A stretch of DNA of 64,000 nucleotides from Candidatus Latescibacterota bacterium (lineage in GTDB: Bacteria > Latescibacterota > UBA2968 > UBA8231), in NCBI GenBank assembly GCA_965204725.1, contig OZ242005.1:2432001-2496000 (forward strand), given 5' to 3'. Made by a program: the position numbers and the translations under genes. This document shows positions 16,701-18,463 of the stretch, in pieces; positions within the stretch are counted from its first letter, which is position 1, and each line of letters starts with the position of its first letter. Below the pieces are notes generated by a model, which made no database searches, was not told the DNA's origin, and saw nothing but the letters and a program-made list of their open reading frames with translations.

Positions 16701-17672
16701 GTAATACGTCTGGACGCGGCTGTCCATAAACACCTCAACCCGATTTTCGGCCTGTCCCGAAAGCACCCTCACCACCGCACCCCGCAGGGAGGGGTTGGAC
16801 TTCAAGACAACGATCTGACCCGGTTCAAACTCCGTTTGGTCTAGCATATACGTTGGCGCCTTTTCGGCTGTTTGCGAAGCTAGGCGGCGGGTACGCGCTA
16901 GCTCCCTTTTTTGAGCTATCTGCACGGCACTGGCGGCAAGCAGACGACCGAGCACTTCCAAGTCGATCATTCGCACATGTTCGCAGACAGCTAGTACTTG
17001 GCCAAAATGCGTATCGAGCGATTGGCGTATCTGGTGTTTTCCGTCCACGGCCTCATCGGTCATGTAGCCGACTAAAATCTCGGCGGCCTTGGCGAGGTGA
17101 TAGAGTCCGATCAATTCGAGCGCGACCACCTTGGCATGGGCCGGTTCTCGTCCTGCCAGATGGTTCTTTTCAAAATCGGATTGGGCATCGCGCAGGCGGG
17201 AGATTCGTTCCAAAGCGACATTGAGGTCGGCGTAGTGATCCCGGCGAATCAGCCGTAGCCAAACGTCGAGGACGGTCGCCCAAGTGCGCTCGGGCCAATT
17301 TTCTGAGTCAATGGGAAGCTCAGCCCAAGGTTCATTCTTCAACCACTGCGCTGCATCAGCCCCTTTGTCGCCCAATACGGCGAGGCTGCCCGCTCTCAAT
17401 AGGGATTTCCCGGCGGCGAGTGGGTCAGCCGGACGAGGCAAAGCGCACAACAAGCAAAAGGCATCAGCAGCGGCGAGTTGCAGTTGCCTTTGTTTTTGCC
17501 CATCATGCGCTGCGTTCTCAAACACGAGATCGAGCACCACCATCTCCAGCACATCAGCAGCCCGTCGGATCAATTTTTCGTCTGCCAACTCGTGCGAATT
17601 CTGTGCATGTTGAGCTAGGTTCAGCGCCTGTTGGCGCATCTCTTCCTGATCTTCGAGCAGCCAATGACTCAT
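13791..17672 (-). CDS. SNF2-family (RapA/DrmD-like) helicase with an extra ~255-aa N-terminal helical domain
   Basis: PYQ, [47 protein letters not shown]. ATGA overlaps with both neighbours. Confidence 0.9.
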   Translation of the reverse strand: [1293 protein letters not shown]

Positions 17673-18463
17673 GGTTCACCTCCAAGTATGCGGGCTGGAA
17701 GGGCACTGATGGCACAAGGCAGATATATGGCGATCAAGCGGCATGTTGTCGGGTATTGCAGTTTTTCCGCCATAGTTCGTCCTCGTGTCCGCAGATCCAA
17801 CTCATTGGGCTGCGTATCCCGAATCAGAACCCCAAAGAGTGCAAGAGCCTTGTTTTCCGACCCAAGGAATAGTCTAACCGCTGCCTTGAATGATGTTTCA
17901 TAGACCGTTCCTTTACAACGGGGTAGGAGCCACCTAAGAAGTTGACGAACCAAGGATAGGTTGTTTGCTAAGTTGTCTAGCTGAGGTATTAAACCGCTCC
18001 GACCGCTCATTACACTCGGTGGCGTTCTAATGTCAGTGGATGATTTCACCTCACCCAGTAGGAGGCGTGTAGCCCCATCTTCAACTATAAACCCAACCAG
18101 ATCTGCGCCTTGAAGGCTCGCATTAGGATGCCTCTTATCGCGTTTCGTGTTCCAAGGCCATATAATTCTATACTCGCGGCTCAGGTGCGCTTCAGCTACT
18201 GCTTCTCCCACCGCCCAGCTTGGTTCTTCGCTTATTTCGGCGGCCAGAATTTCCTCAAGGCTATCTCGAGCGAATCCCGTGTCGGCTAAGTCTTGAAGAT
18301 ACATTTCAAATTCGGCCTCGCCATCTTCGTCGTAAAGCCGTGCCGAAACTTCGTTGGACATAAACGAACTGAACGCATCGCCGTCTTTCATACCTACACC
18401 CTGCCAAGATACCTGACGGTCCTGTCCTTCGTAGTTTACGGTTAATAGATCTGGCTCTGTCAT
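17669..18463 (-). CDS. PD-(D/E)XK nuclease-like protein, Hachiman HamA-like
   Basis: VGEAVAE...GADLVGF...LLGEVKSS catalytic-type motif; coupled (ATGA) to a helicase gene. HamA likeness is from recall, not from a search. Confidence 0.6.
   Translation of the reverse strand: MTEPDLLTVNYEGQDRQVSWQGVGMKDGDAFSSFMSNEVSARLYDEDGEAEFEMYLQDLADTGFARDSLEEILAAEISEEPSWAVGEAVAEAHLSREYRIIWPWNTKRDKRHPNASLQGADLVGFIVEDGATRLLLGEVKSSTDIRTPPSVMSGRSGLIPQLDNLANNLSLVRQLLRWLLPRCKGTVYETSFKAAVRLFLGSENKALALFGVLIRDTQPNELDLRTRGRTMAEKLQYPTTCRLIAIYLPCAISALPARILGGEP

Follow-up and report, generated by a model that had tools for sequence, protein, structure and literature searches.

What is a docking domain of the HamB type doing at the front of an SNF2 ATPase? 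The question is raised by a 1293-amino-acid (aa) protein encoded on the minus strand of contig OZ242005.1 of assembly GCA_965204725.1 (Candidatus Latescibacterota bacterium, uncultured and marine), of which we analyzed positions 2,432,001 to 2,496,000; the whole of this stretch of 64,000 nucleotides (nt) is called the window, and positions are counted from its first letter. A preliminary description made from the DNA letters had proposed that a module consisting of the nuclease HamA and the N-terminal domain of the helicase HamB, the two proteins of the Hachiman defense system, had been recombined onto a different motor. Our analysis supports this proposal, with the link to Hachiman running through a divergent candidate system of PADLOC, PDC-M23, and the Pfam HamA model remaining silent. 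We consider it probable that the locus is a natural hybrid defense operon that arose by one gene fusion, in which a PDC-M23-type nuclease and its dock were joined to the SNF2 protein of a cassette pairing SNF2 with a GHL ATPase. Four consecutive genes, all on the minus strand and arranged head to tail, encode proteins of 264, 1293, 1053, and 460 aa, in this order. The parts on which the argument turns are the following:

17669..18463, minus strand: gene of the HamA-like PD-(D/E)xK nuclease, 264 aa (PADLOC PDC-M23A), overlapping the 1293-aa gene by 4 nt.
13791..17672, minus strand: fusion gene, 1293 aa, composed of bundle, linker, and SNF2 part, overlapping the 1053-aa gene by 4 nt.
16914..17672, minus strand: all-helical domain, residues 1-253 of the 1293-aa protein, a putative HamA dock resembling the HamB NAH bundle (PDC-M23B profile, fold match).
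16848..16913, minus strand: linker of 22 residues, residues 254-275 of the 1293-aa protein.
13791..16847, minus strand: SNF2 ATPase part, residues 276-1293, from the internal ATG at 16847 (Pfam SNF2-rel_dom and Helicase_C).
10633..13794, minus strand: sacsin/Tiamat-like GHL ATPase gene, 1053 aa (Pfam SACS), separated from the 460-aa gene by 4 nt.

The AlphaFold2 model of residues 1-270 of the fusion protein consists of twelve helices and no strand (mean predicted local distance difference test, pLDDT, 86.8), as the preliminary description had read from the first ~255 residues. Residues 10-266 match only positions 13-275 of the 1060 positions of the PADLOC profile PDC-M23B (expect value, E, 1.1e-51); the remaining ~785 positions, which cover a DEAD/Ski2-like core, are absent from the fusion and replaced by SNF2. 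Compared with residues 7-289 of E. coli HamB by VIA-align, the model reaches a Z score of 19.7 over 224 residues (root-mean-square deviation 3.3), the next unrelated chain scoring 8.9. Tuck et al. (PMC12278908) describe the NAH bundle of HamB as common to HamB orthologues and absent from other Ski2 helicases, as the HamA binding site, with ~3038 square angstroms buried, and as being moved by RecA2 during ATP-driven ratcheting, which bears out the statement in the preliminary description that an N-terminal helical region of HamB binds HamA. By its modeled fold, the N-domain of the fusion appears to be a HamB-type bundle, and its binding of the nuclease is predicted.

Separate homology searches with the two halves of the protein lead to two different families, which is what the preliminary description had expected: the N-domain to DEAD/Ski2-like carriers, and the SNF2 part to stand-alone SNF2 proteins beside sacsin-like genes. 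The search with residues 1-270 returned 364 proteins; among the best 120 of these, 94 clusters have a DEAD/Helicase_C architecture (about 1053-1075 aa, 53-63% identical) and 26 are SNF2-type (75-97% identical; 24 of 1265-1296 aa and 2 fragments). The DEAD helicases whose N-domains are 53-64% identical to that of the fusion come from several phyla and from archaea. A second N-domain search, exhaustive over 1.84 billion representatives, gave 278 matches; among the 41 listed that have at least 400 aa, DEAD is found in 38 and SNF2 in none. The other three (P0345, P0368, and P0396) were considered as further motor types on the bundle and rejected as degenerate forms, P0368 being a canonical form without its helicase core. 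The DEAD-type carriers are, as judged from their sequences, Ski2-like or HamB-like: one of them, P0037, matches solved HamB (8vx9_B, E 1e-19) and the PADLOC HamB models (E 3e-64), and covers PDC-M23B profile positions 4-1059.

The 264-aa protein encoded immediately upstream is a full-length PDC-M23A (E 4.1e-98, residues 7-261 on positions 6-260 of 263 of the PADLOC profile) with a weak match to PADLOC HamA1 (E 1.8e-4). The three best matches of its model (mean pLDDT 84.2) among PDB folds are all HamA chains: 8vxy_A, 8vx9_A, and 8zue_A (E 1.4e-6 to 6e-4), the first at E 1.4e-6 and TM 0.56/0.60. D121, E138, and K140 are invariant across 70 aligned relatives, which leaves the D-ExK motif intact; in E. 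coli HamA, E138A/K140A was inactivating (Tuck et al., PMC12278908). Its modeled fold and these invariant residues suggest that the protein is a HamA, that is, a DUF1837 PD-(D/E)xK nuclease with a D-ExK motif.

A complex predicted from this protein and residues 1-270 of the fusion, a check that the preliminary description had recommended, scored 0.71, the best of three controls scoring 0.00. Among solved complexes 116 of 157 reach this mark, and among mismatched pairs 2 of 215, a calibration that applies only roughly because our own alignments were used. Contacts agree between runs to at least 79%, and the partner has a pLDDT of at least 78. The predicted contact stretches of the nuclease (52-81, 108-115, and 169-204) parallel HamA residues 30-63, 102-117, and 159-199, and R108-D-K-R111, at least 90% conserved, fits the (R/K)xx(R/K) interface motif, both as reported by Tuck et al. 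(PMC12278908). The nuclease is thus predicted to dock on the N-domain of the fusion.

Homology to canonical PDC-M23B and other DEAD-type carriers ends at about residue 253. Residues 254-275 are the linker quoted in the preliminary description, and M276 follows, its codon being the ATG at 16847-16845, with the 16-letter stretch quoted there. The linker faintly resembles the segment after the bundle in canonical PDC-M23B, and 20 of its residues are missing in 10 of 27 aligned fusion sequences (window included). The preliminary description had taken this ATG for the start of a stand-alone RapA-like SNF2 protein. The first half of that claim held: stand-alone relatives of residues 276-1293 are many (about 1016-1023 aa, 72-75% identical) and start just before an EFxPGQIV motif, within a few residues of M276. 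The name RapA did not hold, the match to the NCBIfam equivalog model (E 1.4e-52) reaching 179.1 bits against a cut-off of 576. That the junction is natural can be seen from independent DNA. One contig of a public metagenome run, X1, which may be the window's own source, spans the whole of 16300-18600; run X5, which belongs to another study, has a contig that covers 16438-16913 and so supplies the sequence support across ~16850-16910 that the preliminary description had asked for; and independent assemblies, single-contig chromosomes among them, have the same junction in five further genome loci. At least 26 protein clusters share the architecture. We conclude that assembly did not create the junction.

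Behind the junction stands an SNF2 motor (Pfam SNF2-rel_dom and Helicase_C), whose residues 282-1227 match positions 3-941 of 1040 of the PADLOC DrmD profile (PDLC02623, E 8.8e-124). Its translation contains GVGKT and DEAHH, which we take to be the Walker A motif and the DExH box. We recovered 22 loci of this SNF2 family, from Latescibacterota, Anaerolineae, Terriglobia, Binatia, Nitrospirales, Poribacteria, and Desulfobacterota, 21 of them with most of the SNF2 gene. A sacsin-like gene lies downstream of SNF2 in 18 of the 21 (it is absent in L001 and L018, and L016 ends too early), and L002 is the only one of these loci to have a HamA-like gene together with the bundle, of which L001 retains a remnant. 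The window's own 1053-aa partner matches Pfam SACS (E 2.2e-20), the NCBIfam sacsin ATP-binding domain (91.9 bits, cut-off 50), and positions 7-796 of the 1302 of PADLOC TmtA (PDLC03972, E 3e-64), positions 797-1302 being unmatched; for its C-terminus (900-1053) a language-model atlas gives an HNH-like lead (score 0.91 at rank 8, HNH in 76% of the cluster). In three loci a HEPN domain (Swt1-like, RNRWAH motif) sits on the same SNF2 family at the N-terminal position that the bundle occupies in the fusion (L008 9473-13108, L011 9557-13237, and L018 9431-12640), and L008 and L011 also have a downstream sacsin-like gene.

Two side observations concern the cassette itself. The window's genome has a second, unfused SNF2 plus sacsin-like cassette ~60 kilobases (kb) before the fusion gene (G000:C1:2382199-2388550; L029 8199-14550), with an SNF2 protein of 1055 aa (71-73% identical) and a sacsin-like protein of 1064 aa (36% identical to the window's); a candidate defense gene, PDC-S01, lies directly downstream of it. 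In L009 (13866-14033), L013 (13691-13927), and L020 (13897-14115), the SNF2 and sacsin-like genes are separated by a short stretch similar to the C-terminus of the SNF2 protein (~935-1015), as if that end had been partly duplicated.

The fusion has a single origin and forms one clade. In a FastTree tree of 121 SNF2 parts including that of the window (fragments P0026 and P0027 left out, root not inferred), a branch with support 100 sets apart 30 of the 121 rows, namely 25 fusion proteins and, scattered among them, 5 N-terminally truncated forms; the HEPN fusions form a single group of their own (7 rows, support 99). A bundle scan of 168 genomes of the phylum gave a match in 17. Frames of fusion size are confined to the window's genus, where 5 of 31 genomes have them and two further genomes have broken copies, and canonical bundle-DEAD genes, 60-67% identical, occur in another family of the same class. 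The preliminary description had named widespread full-length homologs without HamB likeness as the picture that would speak against it; the restriction of the fusion to one genus and the match of its fold to the HamB bundle contradict that picture.

Within the genus, L050 and L052 keep the order nuclease-fusion-sacsin intact, as does L049 as far as its contig extends. The gene upstream of the window's nuclease gene encodes a TIM-barrel protein (Pfam); in L051, L052, and L053 the nuclease gene has the same neighbor (93-94% identical), and a 268-aa open reading frame (ORF) stands at this neighbor's position in L001 and L002, that of L001 also scanning as a TIM barrel. The common neighbor suggests that the operon has been inherited vertically within the genus at a single chromosomal site. 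One genome, G146, has two fusion operons at different chromosomal places, L050 intact and L051 with an interrupted sacsin gene. Against the window, the ratio of nonsynonymous to synonymous substitution rates (dN/dS) is 0.27-0.37 for the nuclease, 0.27-0.35 for the bundle, and 0.17-0.21 for SNF2 in five loci, and 0.24 for sacsin in one pair, comparisons that share the window and are not independent; for the 22-23 codons of the linker it is above 1 or not computable. Purifying selection acts on every part except the linker.

The public metagenome contigs, compared with window 16300-18600, contain a second form of the locus. The deeper contig of run X5 (19.3 vs 5) and the only contig of run X9 (23 kb), from two studies, break at 16834, and one contig of run X3 starts there. 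The 30-letter loose end past 16834 equals window 10636-10665 exactly, and hence we derive a variant lacking one segment:

10666..16833, no strand: segment of 6168 base pairs (bp) absent in a population variant, lying between GTTTG repeats at 10666-10670 and 16834-16838.

The deletion removes both ATPases and keeps nuclease and dock. If the flanks match the window, the modeled junction leaves an open frame of 752 codons, made up of bundle residues 1-280, 12 new residues, and the whole Schlafen/AlbA_2 protein of the 460-aa gene. An in-frame outcome is expected by chance in ~1 of 5 cases, so selection for the variant is not claimed; the variant does show one concrete route by which defense architectures arise and decay. 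In X3 and X5 there is also weak indication of a second joint, from 17022 to 17421, which skips 398 nt inside the bundle and is seen in contigs of 87 nt whose shorter side has 27 letters.

How might such a hybrid work? The HamA-type DNase gene and the docking bundle would derive from a divergent Hachiman-like system (PDC-M23), joined to the start of SNF2 probably via a deletion between neighboring systems, and the SNF2 ATPase would normally form a two-gene cassette with a sacsin/Tiamat-like GHL ATPase. By analogy with the Hachiman model, the bundle would tether the nuclease and hold it inactive on the SNF2/GHL machine; when the machine engages foreign or damaged DNA and hydrolyzes ATP, the nuclease may be released or switched on and degrade DNA. 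The N-terminus of the SNF2 family may, more generally, be an effector slot, which is empty, filled by a HEPN RNase in cis, or filled by an adaptor for a DNase in trans, and the fusion supports the existence of such an exchangeable slot (empty, HEPN, or bundle plus HamA) in the SNF2 plus Tiamat-like cassette. We infer, with the preliminary description, that the sensor may have been swapped and the effector kept; defense systems appear able to exchange their sensors and still retain the killing enzyme. In the Hachiman model the helicase passes ATP-driven motion to the bundle, freeing the nuclease, and a bundle placed on an SNF2 translocase is a natural test of how general that model is. The alternatives are that a motor of quite another kind can also drive the bundle, or that docking by itself suffices.

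Several observations weigh against this account. Defense function, restraint, trigger, and coupling to an SNF2 lobe are inferred from the Hachiman model. The Hachiman bundle is driven by contact with a Ski2-type RecA2 lobe (PMC12278908), and an equivalent contact by an SNF2 lobe is presumed by analogy. A linker that is unconstrained and deletable is as compatible with a loose tether as with allosteric coupling. The HamA likeness is weak by sequence: no Pfam family is matched by the 264-aa protein, Pfam HamA reaches E 0.01 in only 5 of its 70 relatives and comes near the cut-off in none, a phmmer search of the protein against PDB sequences gave a single match, to TBP by chance (E 1.4), and no HamA, and a profile of the 70-sequence family found no HamA among PDB sequences either. 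Foldseek alone, given the N-domain, ranked HamB first at E 0.02 and returned nothing at E<=0.001; it is the second comparison, by VIA-align, that settles the likeness. The HamAB complex has already been solved, so the docking score may mirror likeness rather than binding by this copy, and the predicted interface residues are slightly but not significantly more conserved (Fisher p 0.06 and 0.11). Finally, five of the nine fusion-clade loci examined (window included) are damaged. L001 has neither a nuclease nor a sacsin gene and is without residues 1-160 of the bundle; L002 and L051 have interrupted sacsin genes; L053 has frameshifts and a truncated nuclease gene; and the fifth case is the deletion variant of the window. 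At 16044-21729 of L002, the sacsin gene is split by three transposase genes (IS1595-type, DDE_Tnp_1, and DDE_3) and an ORF with an fn3 domain.

This damage is the starting point of the main rival, which we regard as rather unlikely. It holds that nuclease and dock are a self-contained pair resembling a toxin and its antitoxin, in which the bundle neutralizes or solubilizes the nuclease and is uncoupled from SNF2, the fusion being a tolerated deletion accident in a decaying locus. Tuck et al. (PMC12278908) suggested that HamB solubilizes HamA. The 6168-bp deletion, the deeper form in X5 and the only form in X9, keeps nuclease and bundle and loses both ATPases, and L001 has lost the nuclease gene and bundle residues 1-160 together. 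In the single-contig genome G085 (L057, 9967-11533), the ORF after a complete HamA-like gene encodes the bundle alone (297 aa), and a helicase core is absent within 16 kb; P0368, the canonical form without its core, and the unconstrained linker also suit this explanation. (A bundle fragment alone is present at 5151-5807 of L058, in G092.) What the rival accommodates less well than the decay pattern is the long-kept frame and the purifying selection. Three large genes remain intact at dN/dS 0.17-0.35 across loci ~15-25% diverged in protein, the 4-nt overlaps and the gene order are kept, and at least 24 full-length clusters of 1265-1296 aa retain the architecture; with an open 1293-codon frame kept so widely, an accidental fusion is unlikely.

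Far less probable is a housekeeping role, in which a RapA-like factor of transcription or repair would carry a repair nuclease and take no part in defense. The significant RapA match invites this idea, and the bit score far below the cut-off undercuts it. Distribution is patchy (7 of 31 genomes of the genus, the window's genome included), copies often decay, and GC (guanine plus cytosine) content is 40-57% over ~10600-18500 vs 60-65% in the flanks; all partners match defense-system models, and the genome's second cassette adjoins the PDC-S01 gene. Still less credible is an ancestral origin of the helical N-domain as a part of the SNF2 family unrelated to Hachiman. Such an origin has in its favor only that the domain is helical and that helical bundles often give middling structural matches, and it is contradicted by the 91 of 121 SNF2 sequences in the tree that lack the domain, by the carriers forming one clade, by the confinement of fusion-type frames to one genus among the 168 genomes of the phylum, by the identity of 53-64% to N-domains of DEAD/HamB-like helicases from several phyla and archaea, and by the gap in Z score to the next unrelated chain. 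An assembly chimera at about 16850-16910, which the contigs of three runs that end or branch at 16834 could alone suggest as a misjoin, is contradicted by the deletion variant, which explains the branch by its other side at 10636-10665, by the X5 and X1 contigs that cross the junction, and by its recurrence in independent assemblies, and we give it practically no credence.

The hybrid operon remains, in our judgment, the best explanation. A broader claim, which we advance tentatively and which could well fail, is that the HamB-type bundle is a portable nuclease-licensing adaptor that can put a HamA DNase under an unrelated ATPase, and that microhomology deletions in defense islands keep creating such pairings, the SNF2/Tiamat-like hybrid and the in-frame fusion of bundle and Schlafen/AlbA_2 being two; the hybrid would then be a working three-protein system, with two ATPases and a trans nuclease, and its sensor and effector modules would be interchangeable. 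If this is true, the hybrid is a natural demonstration that the sensor and effector modules of helicase-nuclease systems interchange. For engineering, the bundle is a possible handle that could be transferred to other sensors so as to tether a caged DNase to them.

The last of the four genes is less firmly tied to the system:

9246..10628, minus strand: Schlafen AlbA_2 and HATPase_c_4 gene, 460 aa (Pfam), a possible accessory gene.

Relatives of this gene were found in none of loci L001-L022 or L049-L053. In L056 (G037, 3684-11378), a gene 60% identical to it lies ~2 kb downstream of a canonical PDC-M23 pair, with a fragment upstream. Genes of this type may recurrently accompany such systems. 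A promoter and terminator scan of 9000-19500 found sites no commoner than in shuffled sequence and is uninformative on the operon boundaries. The lowest GC content in the region is that of the sacsin-like gene (39-50% over window 10600-13800), the adjoining SNF2 gene having 52-60% and the flanks 60-65%.

In the literature searched, we found no published mention of PDC-M23 and no published HamA/bundle module on an SNF2 motor, with the figures and supplements of one preprint (10.64898/2026.09.30.754977), which may already classify this type of cassette, outside the search. The papers found to combine SNF2 with DUF1837, with or without Hachiman, use SNF2 in other contexts only, and the nuclease-NTPase preprint does not contain the term 'SNF2'.

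Among known systems, Hachiman itself (HamA and HamB; E. coli ECOR31, 8vx9/8vxa/8vxy) shares with the window a DUF1837-type fold with D-ExK at the same positions (E138, K140), a nuclease gene immediately upstream of the ATPase gene, and a HamB-type bundle predicted to bind the nuclease. It differs in its motor, since the window has SNF2 and no Ski2-like core, such cores being found only in the canonical carriers of the N-domain; in addition, a third gene, of GHL ATPase type, follows in the window, and the HamA likeness is below the Pfam threshold. PDC-M23 (A and B) has a full-length PDC-M23A and the first 275 positions of PDC-M23B in common with the window, but its full-length B protein, bundle plus DEAD/Ski2-like helicase, is not what the window encodes. 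In both PADLOC and NCBIfam, the SNF2 part is best named after a DISARM protein, DrmD. We rejected a true DISARM DrmD, the score of 324.6 bits lying below the equivalog cut-off of 610. A scan of the four operon proteins gave no match to DrmB, DrmC, or a methylase, and for DrmA only a weaker, generic helicase match of the SNF2 protein. Tiamat (TmtA) resembles the 1053-aa protein in its N-terminal GHL/sacsin-type ATPase and in its middle region, but the C-terminal part of the profile, a PD-(D/E)xK nuclease in Tiamat, is unmatched in the window's protein, where the HNH-like fold is a lead only. Tiamat-like genes are described as neighbors of Swi/Snf helicases, often fused to nucleases (10.64898/2026.09.30.754977), and the two-gene cassette of SNF2 and sacsin/Tiamat-like ATPase is matched by an SNF2 part 72-75% identical and a GHL ATPase downstream; unlike that cassette, the window's SNF2 carries a Hachiman-type dock and is accompanied by a trans nuclease gene. 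A parallel to this arrangement is the HEPN(Swt1-like)-SNF2 fusion, which has the same SNF2 family, the same insertion point, and, in L008 and L011, a downstream sacsin-like gene; HEPN-SWI2/SNF2 fusions were listed by Anantharaman et al. 2013 (PMC3710099). There, an RNase is fused in cis, whereas here a DNase appears to be recruited in trans through an adaptor domain.

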